From Minisyncoccia bacterium (GTDB lineage Bacteria; Patescibacteriota; Minisyncoccia; Phycocordibacterales; CALRBL01): a DNA stretch of 64,000 nucleotides. The notes below the pieces were generated by a model, which saw only the letters and a program-made list of their open reading frames with translations, made no database searches and had not been told where the DNA came from. The stretch lies in contig JBBRNV010000001.1 of the NCBI GenBank assembly GCA_038230075.1, positions 11,672-75,671 on the forward strand, read 5' to 3'. How positions within the stretch are numbered: position 1 is the stretch's first letter; each line of letters begins with the position of its first letter. This document shows, piece by piece, positions 48,473 to 62,339 of this stretch. A program made the position numbers and the translations under genes.

Positions 48473-48548
48473 TGGTGGACGCGACAGGACTCGAACCTGC
48501 CACCCCCTCAGTGCAAGTGAGGTGCTCTACCAGATGAGCTACGCGCCC
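48473..48548 (-). tRNA. tRNA-Ala (anticodon TGC), CCA encoded
   Basis: Minus-strand sequence GGGCGCGTAGCTCATCTGGTAGAGCACCTCACTTGCACTGAGGGGGTGGCAGGTTCGAGTCCTGTCGCGTCCACCA. Cloverleaf with 7-bp acceptor including the G3:U70 Ala identity pair, anticodon loop CTTGCAC, T-loop GGTTCGAGTCC. Confidence 0.92.
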
Positions 48549-53868: not shown

Positions 53869-54966
53869 ATGTCACTCTCAATCGGAATTGTTGGTCTCCC
53901 AAACGTAGGAAAATCAACCCTCTTTAACGCTCTCACGAAAAAGAGTGTTCTTGCTGCAAACTATCCATTTGCCACTATTGATCCTTCTGTTGGTGTTGTA
54001 GCGGTTCCAGATGAACGTCTATATAAGCTTGCAACCTTCTCACAAACTCTCAAAACTGTTCCTGCGGCTGTTGAATTCGTCGATATTGCCGGACTCGTTA
54101 AAGGTGCCGCATCAGGAGAAGGTCTTGGAAACAAATTCCTCTCAAACATTCGAGAAACAGACGCAATTCTTCAGGTAGTTCGAATATTTGAAGATACAAA
54201 TATTATTCACGTTGATAATCGAATTGATCCACTAGGAGATATCGAAGTTATTAACCTTGAACTTGTTTTTGCAGATACCGAAACTGTTGCTAAACGGTTG
54301 GTAAATCTTGGAAAAGATGTAAAAAAGGCAGACAAAGCTGCAATCGCTGAACATACTGTGCTTGAAAAGATAAAAAAAGTTTTAGAAGAAGGAAAGTTGG
54401 CACAAGAAGCAGATTTAACTGAAGATGAGAAAATGATTATACAAAGCGCTCATCTTCTCACCATGAAGCCTATTTTGTATGCACTTAATAAAAAAGGAGG
54501 AGGAACAAATCTTGATGAAATCAACGACGAACGATATAAAAAACTGATCACATTTTTGGAAGGTAAAAAAGCCAGTTTTGTTATTGTAGATGCAAAGATT
54601 GAAGATGAATTAAAAGAATTAGAAGGAGAAGAAAAAGAAATGTTTCGGGTTGATATGGGAGGAAAAGATGATGGAATCGACCTTCTTATTCAAAAAAGTT
54701 ATAGCATGCTTGGTCTCATGACATATTTTACAACAGGTGTTCAAGAAACTCGAGCGTGGACAATTAAAGTCGGCTCAACCGCTCCAATTGCCGGAACTGC
54801 AATTCATACCGATTTTAAAGACAAATTTATTCGCGCAGAAGTCATTAATTGGAAGTCATTGCTCGATTCAGGCTCATTCGGCGTTGCCCGAGAAAAAGGT
54901 TTAGTAAGAACCGAAGGAAAAGAATATATTGTGCAAGATGGAGATGTGATTGAATTCAAAAAATAA
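53869..54966 (+). CDS. ychF: ribosome-binding ATPase YchF
   Basis: G1 GIVGLPNVGKSTLFNALT, a TGS-like C-terminal domain, 365 aa. Confidence 0.9.
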   Translation: MSLSIGIVGLPNVGKSTLFNALTKKSVLAANYPFATIDPSVGVVAVPDERLYKLATFSQTLKTVPAAVEFVDIAGLVKGAASGEGLGNKFLSNIRETDAILQVVRIFEDTNIIHVDNRIDPLGDIEVINLELVFADTETVAKRLVNLGKDVKKADKAAIAEHTVLEKIKKVLEEGKLAQEADLTEDEKMIIQSAHLLTMKPILYALNKKGGGTNLDEINDERYKKLITFLEGKKASFVIVDAKIEDELKELEGEEKEMFRVDMGGKDDGIDLLIQKSYSMLGLMTYFTTGVQETRAWTIKVGSTAPIAGTAIHTDFKDKFIRAEVINWKSLLDSGSFGVAREKGLVRTEGKEYIVQDGDVIEFKK

Positions 54967-55665: not shown

Positions 55666-56754
55666 ATGACCAACAAATCAAAGGTGATCTTAGGGATTAT
55701 TGCAGCCATTATTATCATAGGAGGTATTTGGATTGTTAATGTAAATCGTAATAATGAGCCAAAAAATTTGACCTTTGGTTTGATCTCTAATCTCACTGGA
55801 GATTACTCTGCAGTAGGAGAATCATTTGCAAAAGGTGCAGACTTAGCTCAGTCTGAATGGAATACAGCACATCCAAACCAACAAATTCAAATGATAAAGG
55901 AAGATGATGGCTTTGATGCAAAGAAAGGTCTTTCTGCTTATAAAAAACTTACAAGCATTGATCATATTGATGCTTTAATCAATACAACCACAATTACTAT
56001 TGATGCACTATATGATGATGTATCAAAATCTGGCATACCAGTAGCACTTGGATTCGAGCAAGGAATCGAAGCGAGAGACGATAATGTAGTCCAGTTATGG
56101 CCAGGAAGTGTGCCTGCAGAAGTAAAGCTTGGAGAAGCAATCAAAGAAAAAGGATTTAAGAATATTGTATTATTCGTCGATAACGGCTCCGCCGCTTTTC
56201 AGCGATTTGCAGATGGTTTTAAGAAAGGATATGGATTACCAGTGCAAGAAATAAAAATAGCTGCTGATGGAAGTGATGTGCGTACAAGCGCTCTCAAGGC
56301 AAGCACACTCAAGCCCGACGCAGTTGTATTTATTATCAAACCCACTTCAGGAGCACTTTTGGTTAAAGAATTGAAATCAATTAGTAAAGATAATTATCAA
56401 TTCGTGTTTGATGCCAATATTCAGACAGGTTTTACTGACTACACAAAAATTCTTGGTGATACTAATGTTTTGAATGGTAGTATTATTTATACTGTACCGA
56501 GCGTCTATCGAAAAGACTTTACAGATAATTTCAAGAACAAATTCGGCACGGAGCCAACTATTGGATCAGAGACCGGTTATAACGCATTTAAACTTCTTGC
56601 TCAAAGCTATGATGAAAATAAAGAAAAATGGGTTAAAAATATGCAGGAAGCCAGCTTTGATGGTGCAGACGGAAAGATTGTATTCGATGAGAATGGTATA
56701 AGAATTCCTGAACTTAAAATTGGTACGATTGAGAATGGAAAGCTCCCAAACTAA
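55666..56754 (+). CDS. ABC transporter substrate-binding protein, Liv/branched-chain amino acid type
   Basis: N-terminal signal/TM anchor and type I periplasmic-binding fold. Followed, after the island, by a livH-like permease fragment. Confidence 0.7.
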   Translation: MTNKSKVILGIIAAIIIIGGIWIVNVNRNNEPKNLTFGLISNLTGDYSAVGESFAKGADLAQSEWNTAHPNQQIQMIKEDDGFDAKKGLSAYKKLTSIDHIDALINTTTITIDALYDDVSKSGIPVALGFEQGIEARDDNVVQLWPGSVPAEVKLGEAIKEKGFKNIVLFVDNGSAAFQRFADGFKKGYGLPVQEIKIAADGSDVRTSALKASTLKPDAVVFIIKPTSGALLVKELKSISKDNYQFVFDANIQTGFTDYTKILGDTNVLNGSIIYTVPSVYRKDFTDNFKNKFGTEPTIGSETGYNAFKLLAQSYDENKEKWVKNMQEASFDGADGKIVFDENGIRIPELKIGTIENGKLPN

Positions 56755-56776: not shown

Positions 56777-56812
56777 AAGCCACCGAAAATCTTTCGACTT
56801 CGGTGGCTTTTG
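56777..56812 (+). terminator. rho-independent terminator of the SBP gene
   Basis: AAGCCACCGAA-aatctttcgac-TTCGGTGGCTTTTGG. Confidence 0.55.
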
Positions 56813-56833
56813 GTTAAGGGTTAACGTTTCGGG

Positions 56834-57649
56834 TTAGTCCGCAATACGCTTGAGCGCATCGACCCAATCCTTGCCCTCCTCGCTGATCCGCGCATGGAGC
56901 ATTCGCACCTTCGCGCCCTCGATCGAAATCGGGAACCGCGAGTAGTGGTCGAATGCCGCCGAGAACGGATCATCGTGGTGGCTGAGATCAGTAACGACGG
57001 CGACTTGCTTCGCGCCCTGACGAGCCGCCTCAATCATGAGGAGGATGCCATAGGGCACCAGCTCGCCGAGTTTAAACTTGTCCCCCATCGTCTGCGAACT
57101 CATCGGGAGATGGAGGTCCGTGAGAACCACATCGAACTTCTCCTTGCCGAGAAGCTCCATCGCCTCCTGATAGCCGGTTGCCGTGGTGAGAAAGTGACCA
57201 GCCAAGCCTTTCTTGGCGCTCGCGATATGCTTCGCAGCGTCATCGATGACGAGGATGCGGAGCGCATCAGCCTTGATCGGCACTTGTTCTTCCACAGGGG
57301 ACTCAGAGATTTCTGCAATCGGCGTGAGCTTCTTGCTGATCTCAGAGATCGTGGTCAGAAGATTGTGAAGTAGGTCTGCACCGTGCACGACTGTCACATT
57401 TTCAGGAAGATTGGTCGGCTTAGTGTGGTAACCGCCGCCTCCAACACCCCAAATGCAGAGATAGGACTTCTTTTTATCGAAGTCTTTCTCGATTTTGCGA
57501 ACGCTGTCGAAGATGATGAGATCAGCTTCGCTGGCGACGTCGATGAACTTTACGGGCTCACCGAGGATTTGCTTAATGGTTTTGCCTAGGATTTTTGCTT
57601 CCATGGCGATGTGGACCCGGATGGGTTGGATAGTGGTAGCGGTATTCAT
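56834..57649 (-). CDS. atypical receiver (REC, CheY-like) domain protein with unknown N-terminal domain
   Basis: C-terminal half has LRILVIDD ... KFDVVLTDLHLP ... VAVVTDLSHHDD, matching REC beta1 DD, beta3 phospho-acceptor D and beta4 T positions. Paralogous to 59677..60198. GC-rich codons. Confidence 0.6.
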   Translation of the reverse strand: MNTATTIQPIRVHIAMEAKILGKTIKQILGEPVKFIDVASEADLIIFDSVRKIEKDFDKKKSYLCIWGVGGGGYHTKPTNLPENVTVVHGADLLHNLLTTISEISKKLTPIAEISESPVEEQVPIKADALRILVIDDAAKHIASAKKGLAGHFLTTATGYQEAMELLGKEKFDVVLTDLHLPMSSQTMGDKFKLGELVPYGILLMIEAARQGAKQVAVVTDLSHHDDPFSAAFDHYSRFPISIEGAKVRMLHARISEEGKDWVDALKRIAD

Positions 57650-57737
57650 GAGATATGGCCTTTCTTTGTAGGTTGGATTTGAACGTTAAGTTGGAAAAGG
57701 GCTGGATTGCCTCTAATAACATAGTAACACAACTGTA

Positions 57738-57766
57738 TTGACAAGTCAAATTCGATGTGATAAGAT
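57738..57766 (+). promoter_or_regulatory. candidate promoter TTGACA-N17-TAAGAT with TTGAC-aa-GTCAA inverted repeat over the -35
   Basis: Identical hexamers and spacing to the promoter candidate at 59520..59548. Sits in the divergent AT-rich gap. Confidence 0.35.
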
Positions 57767-57831
57767 TTCGACCAAAGCACTTTACAAGTTGGTCATAGCT
57801 AAAAGTCCTTATTTTTTAAGGATTCCTAACT

Positions 57832-58302
57832 ATGACCAACCAAACAAACATCCTACGCACGTCTTTCGTGCAAGTGTGCAGCTTGCTCTGCATCGCCCTC
57901 GCTCTCTTCCTTACCGGCTGCGCTAAGAAAAAGGTCGAGGAGAAGGTCGTTACTCGGGGCTTCATGTATATGGAGTATCCCAAAGCGATTATTCTTCAAA
58001 TCGACAAGGAAGGCGTCGTCACCACTGGCGAATGGGAGAGTACCCCAGGCATTCCTTGGTCTTGGTGGAAGGATTCGGGTAAGAACGTGGGGAGCGAACT
58101 CACTGCCTATCCCGGCAATAAGTTCGTCCTTGAAGGACCGGCACAAGTGGGCGACCATTTTCGCTACCGCCTCTATTACAAAGAGATTCTCCTCGAAACG
58201 GGTGAGATGAAAAAGGTTTTGGAAAAGGTGACGGTCGAGAGCGACAAAATGGCGGATTATCAAAAGCAGATGGCTGCGACTGAAAGTCCGAAAACACAAT
58301 GA
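57832..58302 (+). CDS. lipoprotein (lipobox LFLTGC)
   Basis: Signal peptide with L-T-G-C lipobox and a beta-rich mature domain. GC-rich codons. Own hairpin terminator at about 58340-58385. Confidence 0.6.
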   Translation: MTNQTNILRTSFVQVCSLLCIALALFLTGCAKKKVEEKVVTRGFMYMEYPKAIILQIDKEGVVTTGEWESTPGIPWSWWKDSGKNVGSELTAYPGNKFVLEGPAQVGDHFRYRLYYKEILLETGEMKKVLEKVTVESDKMADYQKQMAATESPKTQ

Positions 58303-58448
58303 TGGTATACCCATCAGGAGAGCATCCTCAGGTTCGATCCCTGAAAGCATCACAAGCACTGTCCTTCGGGCGGTGCTTTACTTTTTGTATAAAATATGTT
58401 TAAATAATAAAAAATTTTGGTACATTCACAAACTGGCTTTAATCAGGT

Positions 58449-59432
58449 GTGCCGTTGAACACCAGTGTAGACATTCTTATGGATCAAACCACACAGGAAT
58501 TGGCTCAAAACCTTTGGAAAGGTTTTGAGCCTGATCTCACCGAAGATCGAAAGAAACGTTGGCAGGAAGTTTCAAGGGAAATGGCAGAGATGGGAGCACC
58601 TCATGTAAGTGAGGAGAGCGTCCATTGTCATTATGCTGACAGGATGCAACTCGAGACATTTCAGAGAGTCAAAGCGGCATTGGGCGATAAGATTCTCATG
58701 AAGCTCTCCGAACCATCACGGTTTGAAGTGTTGTATGTCGAGACCATGATCACCTGCAGCGCTGAATTCAAGCGAGACACCACTTCCGACTTTCAGAAGG
58801 ATATCGACAAGTTTGGTGTCGGCGCTAAGTTTGATGTTGAAAAAGACATCCAAGAAACTGAAAGAGAGCTCCGGAAATCTATCGAGTCGAAATTCAAACT
58901 CGAGATGCTCTTTTGGTCAGCGCTTGAGAAGGGCGGCCTGAAGGATGCTTCTGCGTTTCTTGCTGCTATTGAATTGGTACGGACGACCGCCTCTAACGAT
59001 TTGCAGATCGAAGCCCTCAACTGGAGGATCAACTTGGCAATTTCTCTGAACGATTTTGAGATGTTCAAAGAATCTTTCAAGAGAGCTGTCGGCATGCAGG
59101 ATCAGTTCGAGGATTTCCGCGAGGCTATGGCAAAAGGGATCAGACGTGTCGTGATCGAGAATCTCCTTCAGGGGCTGGAAATGTTGCCTTCTGATTTCGG
59201 TCTTGCTCAGGCACGTCAATCAGAAAAAGATATCCCAGCCTACTTTGAGGAGCAGGCACAGATCTTCCTACGCGAGGCGTTTTTGGAAATCGTAGACAAA
59301 ATGTGCGCTGATCCAGAGCTTGACCTTATAAAGACGGCAAGGATGGCACTAAGCGAGAAGCGCAGAAGCTATCTCCGGGTCAATCCCTGCTTCAAGGACA
59401 TCCTCTTTGTCGAAAAAAAGAAGGAGAAATAA
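58449..59432 (+). CDS. all-alpha hypothetical protein
   Basis: 327-aa ORF (GTG start at 58449, or ATG at 58479) with E/K/L/A-rich helical sequence. GC-rich codons. No recognizable motif. Confidence 0.5.
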   Translation: MPLNTSVDILMDQTTQELAQNLWKGFEPDLTEDRKKRWQEVSREMAEMGAPHVSEESVHCHYADRMQLETFQRVKAALGDKILMKLSEPSRFEVLYVETMITCSAEFKRDTTSDFQKDIDKFGVGAKFDVEKDIQETERELRKSIESKFKLEMLFWSALEKGGLKDASAFLAAIELVRTTASNDLQIEALNWRINLAISLNDFEMFKESFKRAVGMQDQFEDFREAMAKGIRRVVIENLLQGLEMLPSDFGLAQARQSEKDIPAYFEEQAQIFLREAFLEIVDKMCADPELDLIKTARMALSEKRRSYLRVNPCFKDILFVEKKKEK

Positions 59433-59476
59433 GAAAAAGCGAATGAAGCTGAGCAAGGTTCAATCCCAAGCTCACG

Positions 59477-59502
59477 CCCACAAGAAATTGTGGGTTTTTT
59501 TA
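59477..59502 (+). terminator. rho-independent terminator
   Basis: CCCACAA-gaaa-TTGTGGG followed by T8. Confidence 0.55.
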
Positions 59503-59519
59503 TTATCCAGACGAGTAAC

Positions 59520-59548
59520 TTGACAATATATATTAAGTATGATAAGAT
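59520..59548 (+). promoter_or_regulatory. candidate promoter TTGACA-N17-TAAGAT
   Basis: Same -35/-10/spacing and shared TGATAAGAT as the 57738 candidate. Confidence 0.35.
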
Positions 59549-59676
59549 AATAAAGTAAGTTCTTTGAAAGGTGTCATCCTGTTGAGTTTGGAAGAAAGGA
59601 CATAATTGACTTGCTAGCAAAATGCTAAGCGAATTATGTACTTTCTCACCACACTCAACTCAAAGGAAAAAACACC

Positions 59677-60198
59677 ATGAATATCAAGAAATTGCTCGTT
59701 ATCGATGACCAACCCTGCAACGTCGCGTCTGCTCACTTGACCCTTAAGGAGGGTTACGACTACAAAGTCGTGGACAACATCACTGCCGCCTACGACCTAC
59801 TGAAGTCGGGCGAGAAGTTCGACGTCGTCCTGACCGACCTGTGGCTGCCTCGTGGCGACTTCACTGGCGCCATGCGTGGTGGGGACACAGCAGCAACCCC
59901 TATCGCGGCTGGCCTGATCTTCGCGATCAGGGCCATGAACGAAGGCATGAAGGTCGTCATCTGCACGGACAGCGATCATCACCAGGATCGGCTCTGCTCG
60001 GTCATGGATCTCATCAACGATGGAACGCATGACAAAGAAAAGGCCATCTACTTCGTTGAAGCGAGAACCTGTCCGGTGGAGGGCGCCTGGGAGAACGGTG
60101 AAATCGTTCTCTCCGACGACTGGTATAAAAAGCCCGGTCCGCACCCGAAGAACTGGCTTCAAGCGATGAAAGTCGCCGGCCTCGTTCCTTACCGGTAA
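59677..60198 (+). CDS. stand-alone atypical receiver (REC, CheY-like) domain protein
   Basis: KLLVIDDQ ... KFDVVLTDLWLP ... KVVICTDSDHHQD. Paralog of the C-terminal half of 56834..57649. GC-rich codons. Confidence 0.6.
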   Translation: MNIKKLLVIDDQPCNVASAHLTLKEGYDYKVVDNITAAYDLLKSGEKFDVVLTDLWLPRGDFTGAMRGGDTAATPIAAGLIFAIRAMNEGMKVVICTDSDHHQDRLCSVMDLINDGTHDKEKAIYFVEARTCPVEGAWENGEIVLSDDWYKKPGPHPKNWLQAMKVAGLVPYR

Positions 60199-60258
60199 TA
60201 GTGGTGCACCCACTCGGTGAAGTAACCGACGAGTTCAATCCTCGTAAAACTTTCAAAC

Positions 60259-60296
60259 AACACTGCAAGATTCGTTCTGCGGTGTTTACTTTTTAT
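60259..60296 (+). terminator. rho-independent terminator
   Basis: AACACTGCA-agattcgttc-TGCGGTGTT followed by TACTTTTTAT. Confidence 0.5.
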
Positions 60297-60336
60297 AAAA
60301 CGTGGCTGTTTAAGAAAAAAATGCTAAAATAATAAT

Positions 60337-60900
60337 GTGAACATCCTGCCGCAACTTATTATCAACTCAATCATTGCAGGATCAATCTATTCCTTGGTTG
60401 CCCTTGGTTTTAATCTGATATATGGAACTACGAAGTTTTTTAACCTCGCTCACGGAGTCTTGGCTGCCATCGGAGGATACGCTGTTTTCTACCTCTCGAA
60501 ATCTTTGGATCTTCCTTTGATACCAAGCGCAATCATCGGAATCTGTATCGCTGGACTCATAGGCTTTTTGATAGATAAAACTATCTTTCGAGCACTCCGA
60601 AAAAGGAAGGCTTCGGGCATGGTGTTTCTGGTTGCATCGCTCGGTATCATGACAGCACTTCAAGCGGTCATTGCAATAATTTTCTCAAGCCAGTTTCAGA
60701 CACTTTCTACAGGGTCATTCAAGGTATACGAAATTGCCGGTGGAGTGATTACGCAAGTACAGGTAATTATTTTGTTGCTCTCCATTCTTATTATGTTCGG
60801 ACTTGCGATACTTTTAAAATACACTCGATTTGGCAAAGCAGTAAGAGCTATAAGCGATGACGAGGAAGTATCGAAGATTTATGGAAGTGCTTGGTCATGA
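60337..60900 (+). pseudogene. truncated livH-like branched-chain amino acid ABC permease (N-terminal ~185 aa only)
   Basis: Aligns to the LivH N-terminus (GSIYSLVALGFNLIYGTTKFFNLAHG) through the RFGKAVRAI..IYG region, then terminates. No continuation in the other frames. livM/livG/livF are absent downstream. Confidence 0.6.
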
Positions 60901-61091
60901 GACACCTTCAGAAGCTCTGACGAGATTTAGACAAAGAAAAAGACCTCGTTCTAATTGAGGCCTGGCGGTAGGGCATCGAGAGCTCGATGATCTATACCAT
61001 GATGTATGGAAAACAAGCTGAAAAGCGATATCGCAAATTTAGGGGACAATAGACCCTTTCTTAAATAAAAGGCGCTTGCTATAATTGACGA

Positions 61092-61232
61092 GTGAAGAAT
61101 AAAGCAGCCCAAGAACTAGGTAAAAAAGGTGGCCTAAAGACCAAGAAGAAATATGGTAAAAAGTATTTCAAGAAACTTGGTCAAAAAGCCGCAAAAGTAC
61201 GGTGGGGAAAAATCAAACCCGCCGTTGCTTGA
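61092..61232 (+). CDS. small basic KGG-motif-like ORF (possible remnant)
   Basis: GTG-initiated 46-codon ORF ELGKKGGLKTKKKYGKKYFKKLGQKAAK resembling stress-induced KGG repeat peptides. TTGCTATAAT -10-like element just upstream. No clear RBS. Confidence 0.2.
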   Translation: MKNKAAQELGKKGGLKTKKKYGKKYFKKLGQKAAKVRWGKIKPAVA

Positions 61233-61406
61233 TATATATCGAGCGCTTGGTATGATGTCCTTCAAAGAGTAACTTGAAAATCACATAAAAAGGCTTGCTC
61301 GCCTACTAAGGCCGGAAAAGGGCATTTATGGGCTTAGTAGACGGGCAAATCGACGAATCTCAAGATTTATAGGGCTATTTCGACAAAGTAGCCACTGTTT
61401 ACGAAG

Positions 61407-62339
61407 ATGGTACTGTCATGGAGTTTAAGATATAATTACTTAATGCATCACGAACTATTTATTGCCATCTTGGCAGGTCTTGGAGGAATGTTAGGTTGGG
61501 GATTAGCAGATCTTTTTGCAAAAAAAACGATTGATGAAATTGGTGATGTTGTCAGTTTGGCGTGGGGCCACATTTTCGGCACCATCATTTTGGCTTTAGT
61601 TGCTGTATATCAATTTGGAAGCGGTCATAGTATTTCAATACCACATGATACTCAAACATGGTTTTATTTACTTTTATTTGGAATAGTGCAGGCAACAATC
61701 TATCTTTTGGTCTATCAAGGATTCGGAAAAGGTCAGGTGGCAATTTTAAATCCTGTGTTCGCGTCTTTTTCAGGAATCACCGCACTTTTATCAATTCTTA
61801 TTTTTGGTGAAATTGTGAGTGGATTTGTTTTACTTGGTCTTATCACTTTATTTATCGGAATCATTCTCATCAGTGCTGATTTTCAAGCGCTTAAAGCAAG
61901 AAATTACAGCTTCTCTCATGTTAAAGGGTTACGAGAAGTTGTTCTTGCCACTATTCTTGCTGCTTTTTGGACATTACTTTGGGATAAGTTTATCAATGGT
62001 CATGATTGGATCTCATATGCCTTGTTTATGTATCTATTCATGACTGTGGTGATATTAATTGTTGCAAAGATGCGCAATATTAATCTTGTTGTTACTAAAA
62101 AACACACATGGAAATACTTAATTCTTATTGGTGTTTGTGAAACTATTGCGTATTTAGCTATTAGTCTAGGATACAGCACCACATTTCACCTCAGTGTCGT
62201 TGCAATTTTAAGTGGGGCATTTTCACTCCCAACAATTATTCTTGCAAGAACTTTCTTAAAAGAAAAAACAACACAAGTACAACTTTCAGGTTCTCTTGTT
62301 ATTATTCTTGGAATAATAATTTTGGCTGTGTTACAATAA
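61407..62339 (+). CDS. DMT superfamily (EamA-like) transporter
   Basis: 10 predicted TM helices in two 5-TM halves. A more likely start is the ATG at about 61443 (MHHELFIAIL). Confidence 0.7.
   Translation: MVLSWSLRYNYLMHHELFIAILAGLGGMLGWGLADLFAKKTIDEIGDVVSLAWGHIFGTIILALVAVYQFGSGHSISIPHDTQTWFYLLLFGIVQATIYLLVYQGFGKGQVAILNPVFASFSGITALLSILIFGEIVSGFVLLGLITLFIGIILISADFQALKARNYSFSHVKGLREVVLATILAAFWTLLWDKFINGHDWISYALFMYLFMTVVILIVAKMRNINLVVTKKHTWKYLILIGVCETIAYLAISLGYSTTFHLSVVAILSGAFSLPTIILARTFLKEKTTQVQLSGSLVIILGIIILAVLQ

Follow-up and report, generated by a model that had tools for sequence, protein, structure and literature searches.

We propose, with a probability of roughly 60%, that the block at 56.8 to 60.3 kb of the window (the whole 64-kb stretch of DNA analyzed here) is a group of four autonomous single-gene cassettes from a GC3-rich accessory gene pool that circulates in Parcubacteria-type Patescibacteria. 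In each cassette, a GC-rich ORF is flanked by AT-rich expression signals, and cassettes of this kind recur across ultra-small Patescibacteria. The four ORFs lie within positions 56834 to 60198, with a GC3 of 0.55 to 0.72 compared to a window median of 0.26, and encode REC271 (56834 to 57649, minus strand; GC 0.545, GC3 0.68), lipo156 (57832 to 58302, plus strand; GC 0.505, GC3 0.62), hel327 (58449 to 59432, plus strand; GC 0.473, GC3 0.55), and REC173 (59677 to 60198, plus strand; GC 0.559, GC3 0.72). GC3 in the 10 host genes compared was 0.25 to 0.42. Windowed GC is 0.45 to 0.58 across 56.8 to 60.3 kb and 0.31 to 0.40 in the rest of the window, and among 59 non-overlapping window ORFs (median GC3 of 0.257, robust standard deviation of 0.03) the island genes are the sole strong outliers. 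The compositional anomaly described in an earlier, sequence-only reading is thus real when recomputed by window and per gene, although its figure of 55 to 60% GC for the four ORFs roughly fits GC3 and overstates whole genes (47 to 56%). Codon usage in the block has moved overall toward both G- and C-ending codons. The five spacers are host-like (0.36 to 0.38 GC), bearing out the AT-rich signals reported between the GC-rich ORFs. As had also been described, the block is bordered on the left by the gene for a Liv-type substrate-binding protein (SBP; 55666 to 56754, plus strand; Peripla_BP_6, E = 1.6e-25; GC3 of 0.27) and on the right by a truncated LivH-type permease gene (60337 to 60900, plus strand).

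The REC173 cassette has the most complete chassis: a sigma-70 promoter, a structured leader of 125 nt, a 3' module of three hairpins that adjoins the stop codon, and a terminator. This chassis is reusable, as leader A and the 3' module also surround unrelated ORFs elsewhere; the ORFs carried on it are mutually unrelated and lack a Pfam family. REC271, whose family is the largest, is followed by a plain terminator and lacks a shared leader. The two near-identical TTGACA-N17-TAAGAT promoters reported earlier, each with an upstream TG, were found at 59520 to 59548 (plus strand, REC173) and 57738 to 57766 (lipo156). The latter is half of a back-to-back pair (57721 to 57766), in which TTGACT-N17-TACTAT (57749 to 57721) drives REC271 on the minus strand and TTGACA-N17-TAAGAT drives lipo156 on the plus strand. 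No promoter for hel327 was found at ≥9/12 matches, the only candidate being an extended -10-like TGTATAAAAT at 58386-95. Terminator hairpins were found 3' of all four genes, so the claim that every gene has its own promoter and terminator holds for four of four terminators and for the promoters of three genes. A cassette-like gene organization is supported. The SBP and REC271 genes converge on a hairpin read from the sequence at 56780 to 56806, with T-runs on both strands, which is probably a bidirectional terminator; the REC271 3' region is kept in locus L020, which comes from a different sample.

Leader A (59549 to 59676, plus strand) is a conserved and structured 5' UTR; it contains a long irregular hairpin (59581 to 59659), and its 5'-proximal UUUGAAAG (59563 to 59570) is complementary to the 3' core. 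Alignment A6, which sets it against the 5' UTRs in front of unrelated ORFs in L042, L045, and L055, shows a mean identity of 77% and 29 pairs, with compensatory changes in 5. Model R2 also detected it (67.5 bits) upstream of a REC paralog in L025; the case for leader A is built on five copies. A second leader, leader B (58435 to 58478, plus strand; GGCTTTAAnnAGGTGTGCCnnTGAACACCAG...), precedes hel327 and recurs elsewhere, also in front of unrelated ORFs: it was found upstream of hel316 (L020), hel312 (L040), REC173h (L048), and, in L044, a 146-aa ORF and REC211. In the 3' module (60196 to 60259, plus strand), the tandem stops TAA-TAG run into hairpin P1 (60200 to 60214), followed by P2 (60215 to 60228), P3 (60229 to 60245; loop TTCAATC), and the invariant core AAAACTTTCAAAC (60246 to 60258). 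Model R1 scored the REC173 module at 87.4 bits, and 17 distinct copies were found, each after an unrelated ORF. Compensatory changes occur in P1 and P3, paired cells reach 94.7% compared to 30 to 51% in slid controls, and the REC173 module's fold agrees with the proposed structure (z = -3.4). Because the alignments were seeded with exact-pattern hits, the invariant parts of both module and leader are partly so by construction. Neither leader A nor the 3' module matched Rfam 15, with nothing at E ≤ 1 in 55 to 62 kb and sub-threshold noise only at E ≤ 10 in 60150 to 60340. A terminator hairpin and T-run come next (60259 to 60296, plus strand); together with the DNA from there to livH, they are orthologous with the stretch past hel316 in L020. 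Tandem arrays of cassettes occur in L044, L048, and L008, and one homology break between relatives coincides with the conserved core of the 3' module.

The two central cassettes carry related 3' architectures. lipo156 is a small lipoprotein, with a signal peptide and lipobox LTGC read from its translation. Its family is rare (8 representatives at E ≤ 1e-3 in 1.8 billion proteins), and its core residues 59 to 110 are one of 11 matched stretches within a single 1373-aa protein. No homolog was found in the relatives' loci examined, the L020 slot included. Its 3' region (58300 to 58392, plus strand) comprises four hairpins, with the stop codon inside P1, a short P2, a P3 with a T-loop-like loop TTCGATC, and the terminator last; the fold is at -30.6 kcal/mol (z = -2.9). 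The architecture is that of the REC173 3' module (alignment A4), with diverged sequence. hel327, called helical in the sequence-only reading, has no Pfam family and probably starts at the ATG at 58479; it is 67% identical to L020 hel316 beginning at residue 11. Neighbors of its homologs include a REC271 homolog and Liv genes (L040) and TrmB (L038). In its 3' region (59433 to 59505, plus strand), a T-loop-like hairpin precedes an intrinsic terminator (59476 to 59495 plus T-run). Model R1 detected neither the lipo156 nor the hel327 3' region, and their likeness to the module is architectural only.

REC271 and REC173 have genuine receiver folds, of the (βα)5 flavodoxin-like type. REC271 comprises a small α/β domain of unknown type (residues 1 to 110) and a divergent receiver domain (126 to 271; DD137, D178, T220, HH224-225, K260xW262), while REC173 is a stand-alone divergent receiver without an output domain (DD10-11, D54, T97, HH101-102, R130, K158xW160), with an insertion between β3 and α3 and a β-hairpin past β5. 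The earlier description of two paralogous receiver-like proteins with a β3-α3 insertion is confirmed, as they share 36% identity across 108 aa (E = 4e-12). Pfam Response_reg (PF00072) matched only the N-terminal half of its profile in both proteins (positions 1 to 56 of 111), scoring 31.3 for REC173 (gathering cut-off of 30.2) and 21.3, under the cut-off, for REC271. The acidic pocket (D10, D11, and D54 in REC173; D137 and D178 in REC271) is invariant in the families and aligns with D12, D13, and D57 of CheY. The predicted β4 strand ends in a threonine (T97 in REC173, T220 in REC271) that hardly varies, and a D-x-x-x-P motif follows β3. The canonical lysine at the end of β5 is missing: β5 of REC173 terminates in A129-R130, and the matching position in REC271 is variable (R, P, K, T, G...). 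The invariant lysine of both families occurs later, in a KxW motif starting the last helix, and both have an extra invariant HH motif at T+4 and T+5. They could be ordinary two-component response regulators, one a CheY-like single domain and the other with an unknown domain N-terminal to its receiver, served by a kinase encoded elsewhere in the genome. We consider this unlikely, since sequence similarity ends past β3, the β5 lysine is replaced or variable, and the HH and KxW motifs are additional to the canonical set. In addition, the 28 window ORFs scanned with Pfam (nearly all ORFs of ≥300 aa included) gave no match to a histidine kinase or Hpt domain, in line with the absence of a nearby kinase noted earlier, and neither did the called genes with Pfam records around homologs at ~25 loci.

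No curated family or defense system fits REC271, REC173, lipo156, or hel327, in agreement with the sequence-only reading, which could not place the architecture in a described system. The label "orphan," in contrast, does not stand: the REC271 family has >146 clusters, with full-length conservation at 44 to 85% identity in Parcubacteria-type genomes, the REC173 family 21, and the hel327 family 10. The single ORFs with their own promoter and terminator, the deviant composition, the cargo of small proteins without known families, and hammerhead-like ribozymes that precede homologous cassettes in L013 and L018 would also suit phage-derived morons or a defense or anti-defense module left by a prophage. 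This origin is improbable, as relatives of REC271 and REC173 and leader A are all missing from IMG/VR, 50,697 phage records gave 0 matches, and PADLOC and PHROGs yielded weak receiver-half matches only. Two module-pattern matches in IMG/VR reached only 26 bits and lacked P1, and the flanking genes (ychF, DUF3800, Liv, and EamA) are cellular housekeeping genes.

The sequence-only reading took the block for an insertion that broke the liv operon and that could have been acquired horizontally; in its full form, this account would have one recent transfer from a GC-rich donor land in the operon and inactivate it. The strong GC3 contrast, the sharp borders, and the shift to both G- and C-ending codons are what such an event would leave, and L020 has a tyrosine recombinase gene ~6 kb away (with XerC/D-type Pfam domains only), the last ~80 nt of which survive in the window. 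Comparison with L020 makes this account hard to sustain. There, the slot between SBP (92% amino acid identity to the window SBP) and LivH is occupied by REC272 and hel316, yet is followed by intact livH, livM, livG, and livF. The common ancestor with L020 already had REC271 and hel327 genes in this slot. Two cassettes of the window, lipo156 and REC173, are missing from the slot in L020; conversely, only L020 has a 138-aa cassette there. In the window, the truncated livH matches BPD_transp_2 at profile positions 2 to 172 of 269, and only its residues 1 to 183 are homologous (86% identity to L020 LivH 1-183). Homology to L020 ends at LivH residue 183 and returns at 60973 to 61434 (L020 391 to 853; 92% nucleotide identity), placing a deletion junction inside 60886 to 60972. 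A later deletion of ~5.3 kb, unrelated to the island, truncated the window's liv operon; the island did not break it. Neither flanking direct repeats nor a tRNA gene was found at the block, the sole tRNA gene of the window being at 48473. With its REC271 and hel327 core at the same site in L020, and with no tRNA gene or repeats bounding it, the block does not have the form of a recently acquired island.

The composition argues in the same direction. In 19 of 19 other loci, in hosts of 0.34 to 0.53 GC, the GC content of REC271 homologs exceeds that of their far flanks, and per-gene GC3 excess was found in L016, L018, and L020, at the REC173 loci, and in L002, L004, L038, and L040. In the last four, genes for which high expression would be expected (HU, S15, NusA, trigger factor, and ClpP) are not GC3-rich. 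Synonymous divergence is 0.61 for REC271 (dN/dS of 0.16), ~1.0 for REC173 (dN/dS of 0.06 to 0.09; GC3 of 0.66 to 0.72 in three of three copies), and 2.2 for hel327 against hel316; the island proteins are under purifying selection. High GC3 has thus been kept at synonymous divergence of 0.6 to 2.2, and therefore a single recent transfer fails as an explanation: the GC excess is a family trait in every genome examined and persists at saturating divergence, leaving a one-off acquisition very improbable indeed. A chimera, in which a GC-richer organism's DNA was joined to an AT-rich contig and for which the sequence-only reading had wanted a check, is favored by the abrupt composition change only and has practically no credibility, given host-like internal spacers, promoters of a type found in relatives, junctions identical in an independent Logan assembly (L001), homologous genes within matching flanks in a different sample (L020), and a livH terminator and leader that run on from the REC173 module as they do from the hel316 module in L020.

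A circulating pool of cassettes is consistent with the contexts in which these genes occur. REC173-type genes of 54 to 88% identity lie in at least five different contexts. Of 21 loci, 7 have a Liv SBP within 5 kb and 7 have a TrmB-like gene within that distance, with TrmB divergent next to REC173 and hel327 homologs; this closeness could reflect a shared variable region instead of a shared function. For movement of cassettes as units, no target-site duplications were seen and the window held no associated recombinase, nor was an empty and occupied pair with base-level boundaries on both sides found. Our best guess is that the REC proteins are kinase-independent receiver-type adaptors tied to TrmB regulators and Liv uptake loci. 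We speculate that REC271 and REC173 would function on their own, as adaptors or switches that could be turned on by a small-molecule phosphodonor or a ligand, or work without phosphorylation, with the recurrently adjoining TrmB-type regulators and Liv-type uptake loci as putative partners. The shared UTR elements may place cassettes under common post-transcriptional control and could serve as homology handles in cassette exchange. High GC3 might be upheld by mRNA-level selection or by GC-biased gene conversion in an often-recombining pool.

Single-domain and atypical receivers (CheY, DivK, CpdR, FrzS, and AmiR) are close to the REC proteins in the fold, acidic pocket, β4-end threonine, and D-x-x-x-P, and REC173 stands alone without an output domain. 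The REC proteins differ from these receivers in lacking a canonical lysine at the end of β5, in their invariant HH and KxW, in long insertions past β3 and β5, in that no kinase partner is seen, and, in REC271, in the N-terminal domain. FrzS and the receiver-like domain of AmiR are phosphorylation-independent, and the partner of AmiR is AmiC, a Liv-type binding protein. This pairing parallels the Liv neighborhood of the REC genes and is a lead only. AmiC is cytoplasmic, whereas the Liv SBPs here carry a membrane anchor at the N terminus.

Morons, a concept from lambdoid phage genomics, resemble the cassettes as single ORFs with a sigma-70 promoter and intrinsic terminator, deviant composition, and unrelated neighbors. 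Promoter, terminator, and composition are all present here, but the cassettes are located among housekeeping genes of cellular chromosomes, not in a phage or prophage, and are missing from the viral collections searched. They also have conserved structured 5' and 3' UTR elements in common, a feature not known from morons. Integron cassettes and their attC sites are likewise similar in having small unrelated ORFs, each with a conserved hairpin element directly past the stop codon, in tandem arrays (L044, L048, and L008) with a homology break at the element core. The cassettes of the block differ in having their own promoters and mixed orientation (REC271 on the opposite strand). Neither the attC inverse-core/core nor promoterless ORFs nor an intI/attI/Pc platform characterizes the block: inspection of the 3' module by eye showed no RYYYAAC/GTTRRRY core sites, no intI-attI-Pc platform lies adjacent, the window has no integrase gene, and a literature search gave no integron link to these cassettes.

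A survey of 125 Patescibacteria genomes reported genomic islands in the hundreds as well as genes transferred one by one, with most of the exchange taking place inside the phylum (PMC12455944), which fits a phylum-internal accessory pool. A term search of that paper, made for response regulators and cassettes only, returned no mention of either.

The four GC3-rich ORFs at 56.8 to 60.3 kb form a cluster of autonomous single-gene cassettes in a conserved but variable slot at the Liv locus. The receiver-fold proteins encoded by two of the cassettes are conserved and divergent, UTR elements common to unrelated genes form the basis of the REC173 cassette, and the decay of the neighboring liv operon is an independent deletion. 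We put the probability of these anatomical and evolutionary statements at roughly 80%. The sequence-only reading of this region had picked out a real compositional anomaly, confirmed by recomputing windowed GC, per-gene GC3 and codon usage; the finding is more structured than it supposed, and its readings of orphan proteins and of an island that broke an operon are wrong. Windowed GC rises from 0.31-0.40 to 0.45-0.58 over 56.8-60.3 kb, the only such rise in the 64-kb window, although whole-gene GC is 47-56% and not the 55-60% first proposed. The genes are REC271 (56834-57649, minus strand; 271 aa, GC3 0.68), the lipoprotein lipo156 (57832-58302, plus strand; 156 aa, GC3 0.62), hel327, reported as helical (58449-59432, plus strand; 327 aa, GC3 0.55), and REC173 (59677-60198, plus strand; 173 aa, GC3 0.72). 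They are the only strong outliers among 59 non-overlapping window ORFs (median GC3, 0.257). Flanking host genes have a GC3 of 0.25-0.42, GC2 is unchanged in the block genes, the five spacers are 36-38% GC, and codon usage shifts toward G-ending and C-ending codons alike. A TTGACA-N17-TAAGAT promoter with an upstream TG precedes lipo156 and another precedes REC173, and that of REC271 is TTGACT-N17-TACTAT. Hairpin terminators lie 3' of all four genes, and a promoter scan found no consensus-grade promoter ahead of hel327.

The block lies between a gene for a Liv-type substrate-binding protein (SBP) on the left and a LivH-type permease gene, truncated at about two-thirds of its length, on the right. 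In L020, a related locus from a different sample, SBP and LivH are 92% and 86% identical to those of the window. The interval between them holds REC272 and hel316 (84% and 67% identical, respectively), arranged as in the window, with livH, livM, livG and livF intact downstream. The presence of the same REC and hel genes next to an intact livHMGF shows that the slot was already occupied in the common ancestor of the two loci and that its occupation is compatible with a working operon. Compared with L020, the window itself has lost some 5.3 kb in a single deletion (junction in the 60886-61434 region): homology stops at LivH residue 183 and restarts at 60973-61434, which corresponds to L020 positions 391-853 at 92% nucleotide identity. 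The lost stretch covers the 3' part of livH and all of livMGF, and beyond these a TrpR-like gene, a 332-aa gene rich in GC and most of a gene for a tyrosine recombinase; no livM, livG or livF was found elsewhere in the 64-kb window. The decay is thus separate from the filling of the slot, contrary to the idea that the island broke the operon. The contents of the slot differ between the loci, with lipo156 and REC173 found only in the window and a 138-aa GC-rich gene only in L020. A small lysine/glycine-rich ORF lies at about 61090-61215, within the L020-matching stretch. A SAM-II riboswitch match at 60291-60337 (plus strand), which separates the terminator of REC173 from the start codon of livH, falls below threshold (21.2 bits, cut-off 44; E 0.05 for 191 nt searched) and is probably noise. 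At L055:1266-3004, ychF (66% amino acid identity to the window ychF at 53869-54966) is directly followed by a different GC-rich cassette, which carries leader A, the structured 5' UTR of REC173, and the 3' module, a three-hairpin element found after the REC173 stop. The region from ychF to liv may be a recurrent landing area.

The two receiver-like proteins are paralogs, as had been noticed (36% identity over 108 aa between REC173 and the C-terminal part of REC271, E 4e-12). In profile and sequence searches, the match is confined to the first half of the receiver domain. Both proteins keep the acidic pair after β1, the Asp ending β3 and the Thr ending β4; the canonical Lys ending β5 is not retained, the position being Arg in REC173 and variable in REC271. 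An HH pair at Thr+4/+5 is invariant in both REC families, and a KxW motif begins the last helix of each. Structure models bore out the proposed β3-α3 insertion, and the N-terminal part of REC271 is an α/β domain of ~110 residues. Far from being orphans, the proteins belong to families of more than 146 clusters (REC271, conserved over its full length at 44-85% identity) and 21 clusters (REC173). Source names for the REC271 family include Taylorbacteria, Wolfebacteria, Campbellbacteria, Staskawiczbacteria, Paceibacterota and 'Parcubacteria group'. Additional receiver-like paralogs of 194-223 aa occur at L004:11273-11857 (-), L025:6977-7648 (-), L043:1254-1904 (-) and L044:2998-3633 (+). They have an insertion of ~40 aa between α2 and β3 or a long insertion past β5, and all retain DD, D, T, HH and KxW; the superfamily is wider than the two window families. 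No Pfam family matches hel327, whose relatives form ten clusters. The lipoprotein lipo156, with an LTGC lipobox, has very few relatives. In the 1373-aa protein P0155, 11 stretches matched, among them the lipo156 core (residues 59-110), and these multiple matches suggest a surface-repeat domain. Identity of the block as a defense system, phage family or NCBIfam family was rejected, since searches of the four proteins against PADLOC, PHROGs and NCBIfam gave only weak matches, to the receiver half.

Liv-type SBPs lie no more than 5 kb from the REC271 homolog at 7 of 21 loci, TrmB-like regulators likewise at 7 of 21, and in L018 and L040 the REC271 homologs also sit inside Liv clusters. Homologs of REC173 adjoin TrmB-family genes divergently, as does a hel327 homolog in L038. 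These divergent neighbors are genuine TrmB winged helix-turn-helix proteins; REC271, considered as their counterpart, was rejected for want of any similarity to them, and the window contains no TrmB homolog. Each of five loci (L002, L004, L030, L038, L044) has several TrmB-family paralogs, about 250 aa long and close to the host in composition, which often flank GC-rich cassettes divergently. Pairs of receiver paralogs are frequent (L004, L025 and the window). Genes of the REC173 type, at 54-88% identity, occur in at least five different genomic contexts, which argues that such a gene moves singly. The reported lack of a nearby kinase stood up to a wider search, as no kinase or Hpt gene was found in annotated homolog neighborhoods or among the 28 window ORFs scanned.

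The GC3 excess of the block recurs in its relatives. The REC271 homolog exceeds DNA more than 3 kb away in GC at 19 of 19 other loci, by 0.03-0.20, in hosts of 0.34 to 0.53 GC; gene by gene, a GC3 excess is seen in L016, L018 and L020, and also in REC173 and hel327 homologs. A minority of REC271 homologs (L028, L031, L037) have near-host GC3, so the excess can be lost. Between the window and L020, dS is 1.25 for SBP (dN/dS 0.035), saturated for livH, 2.2 for hel327 (dN/dS 0.11) and 0.61 for REC271 (dN/dS 0.16). For REC173, compared with L048 and L008, dS is about 1.0 and dN/dS 0.06-0.09, and GC3 is 0.66-0.72 in all three copies. The compared block genes are functional and under purifying selection, and their GC3 excess is older than one full turnover of synonymous sites. 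Candidate causes are selection on the mRNA, GC-biased conversion inside a frequently recombining pool, or repeated replacement out of a GC-rich reservoir. A single recent import is no explanation, because the excess has survived synonymous turnover. Expression-linked codon bias was rejected: genes at the same loci with presumably high expression (HU, S15, NusA, trigger factor, ClpP) have ordinary GC3, as do enolase and MreB in the window, recognized by N-terminal sequence, and G-ending and C-ending codons are both shifted. An overlapping antisense gene was rejected as well, as the long antisense ORFs inside REC271 genes (window 56894-57373, plus strand; similar in 18 loci) lie in the codon-aligned frame, which is left open just because the GC3-rich sense frame has almost no TTA, CTA or TCA codons, and are most likely no genes. 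An excess at saturating dS warns that a compositional island is not always a recent transfer, and the cassettes offer a natural test case for selection versus biased gene conversion.

The sequence-only remark on a separate promoter and terminator for each gene is directly touched by a chassis of shared elements around the ORFs. The 3' module (60196-60296 including the terminator, plus strand) begins right at the REC173 stops TAA-TAG and comprises 64 nt, with three abutting hairpins and an invariant tail, AAAACTTTCAAAC, followed by the terminator. It is also present behind hel316 in L020 and a REC173 homolog in L013, and a scan for the exact pattern detected copies in 15 metagenome contigs, two of which have two. 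In nearly all copies with a callable upstream ORF, it starts at the stop codon or 14-20 nt past it. Among these ORFs, usually GC3-rich relative to their own contig, are several receiver paralogs, along with small proteins of which at least six are unrelated to each other; none has a Pfam family. Compensatory changes occur in P1 and P3, with double changes at 8 pairs, and pairing holds in 94.7% of cells compared to 30-51% in slid controls, the structure having been derived from the same sequences. With R1, the covariance model of the module, the window yields a single full hit (87 bits), and weaker variants turn up behind other cassettes in L008 and L025; the lipo156 3' region has the same four-hairpin layout with diverged sequence. 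T-arm-like hairpins behind three genes were rejected as tRNA remnants or att sites, as ARAGORN found no tRNA and the loop varies (GNRA-type, TTTA); the T-arm-like hairpin is one stem of the larger motif. The module has no match in Rfam 15, and its pattern gave only two weak matches in IMG/VR (26 bits with R1, without P1), with P2 and the core pattern on the viral contigs L057 (1504-1576) and L058 (942-1014), which may be relatives or chance matches. Tandem cassettes with a module behind each ORF occur at L044:2853-3700, L048:783-1560 and L008:8517-9078. The stretch from the module to the next ORF is conserved there, reading (A)CTTCATTGAG(T/C)C-hairpin-G(A/G)TTCATAGAG(T)TACAG, then (G/A)TCTTTGA and leader B, a second leader. 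Absent from Rfam, this stretch is possibly an additional element for processing.

In L042, L045 and L055, unrelated ORFs have 5' UTRs with a mean identity of 77% to leader A, which in REC173 is 128 nt long, and their cassettes also have the most similar 3' modules. The leader A hairpin contains 29 pairs, five of them compensatory. The leader A covariance model, R2, also matches ahead of a receiver paralog in L025, and leader A has no match in Rfam 15 or IMG/VR. Leader B is found ahead of hel327, hel316 and hel312, and likewise ahead of a REC173 homolog in L048 and of two further ORFs in L044; one ORF family can therefore have different leaders, and one leader different ORFs. Complementarity links UUUGAAAG (59563-59570), at the start of leader A, with the 3' core, CUUUCAAA (60250-60257), and the difference between the window and L020 has its right-hand end at that core. 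Hammerhead-like type III cores (CUGAUGAG...CGAAAC, GUC site) are found at L013:7900-7978 (+), ahead of a REC173 homolog, and at L018:5939-5981 (+), ahead of a REC271 homolog, in each case 20-25 nt from the start codon. With scores of 38.8 bits (E 2.6e-5) and 24 bits (E 0.41), neither reaches the Rfam cut-off of 48.5, and no hammerhead ribozyme was found in the window or in 11 further loci.

We speculate that the receiver-like proteins are adaptors or switches without a dedicated kinase, tied to TrmB regulators and amino acid uptake, and that the common UTR elements provide joint post-transcriptional control and perhaps serve as recombination handles; this mechanism is tentative. An equally doubtful extension is that the cassettes belong to an undescribed Patescibacteria system in which unrelated GC3-rich ORFs, with receiver-fold cargo prominent, share an interchangeable chassis: a consensus promoter, leader A or B, sometimes with a hammerhead ribozyme, a 3' module starting at the stop codon, and a terminator. 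The chassis elements would double as a post-transcriptional control circuit and as handles for exchange between loci and genomes. The core CTTTCAAA and its complement at the leader 5' end would form the borders of the unit, and the lasting GC richness could be the footprint of exchange, through GC-biased conversion, or of mRNA selection.

Patescibacteria make up a large part of bacterial diversity. Their genomes are tiny and encode few regulators, and their accessory biology is mostly obscure; to our knowledge, plasmids, integrons and conjugation are rarely seen in them. A kinase-less, phylum-wide receiver-fold superfamily, strongly conserved beside TrmB and amino acid uptake genes, could indicate an episymbiont-specific signaling mode. 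On their own, the receiver-like proteins would be only modestly new, and value is added by the phylum-wide GC3-rich cassette pool and two unrecorded structured RNA/DNA elements common to unrelated genes. R1 and R2 can be used to catalog the accessory gene pool and to test gene movement or co-regulation in Patescibacteria. Gene exchange within the group is documented in general (PMC12455944); in that article, a term search for response regulators or cassettes came up empty. Searches of the literature that paired Patescibacteria with response regulators or TrmB, with GC3 or with integrons returned nothing relevant beyond general HGT context, and no description of these protein families or RNA elements was found in the literature searched.

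Among known systems, the REC proteins share their fold with receiver domains; with no β5 Lys, and no kinase partner in the neighborhoods and window ORFs scanned, we class them as a variant of this kind, distinct from ordinary response regulators. Phage morons have their own promoter, a terminator and deviant composition, as the cassettes do, but the cassettes are not in phages. Similarity to integron cassettes lies in a hairpin element after each ORF, in the formation of arrays and in a break located at a conserved core, but inspection showed no attC core sites, there is no integron platform, and the cassettes described here carry their own promoters.
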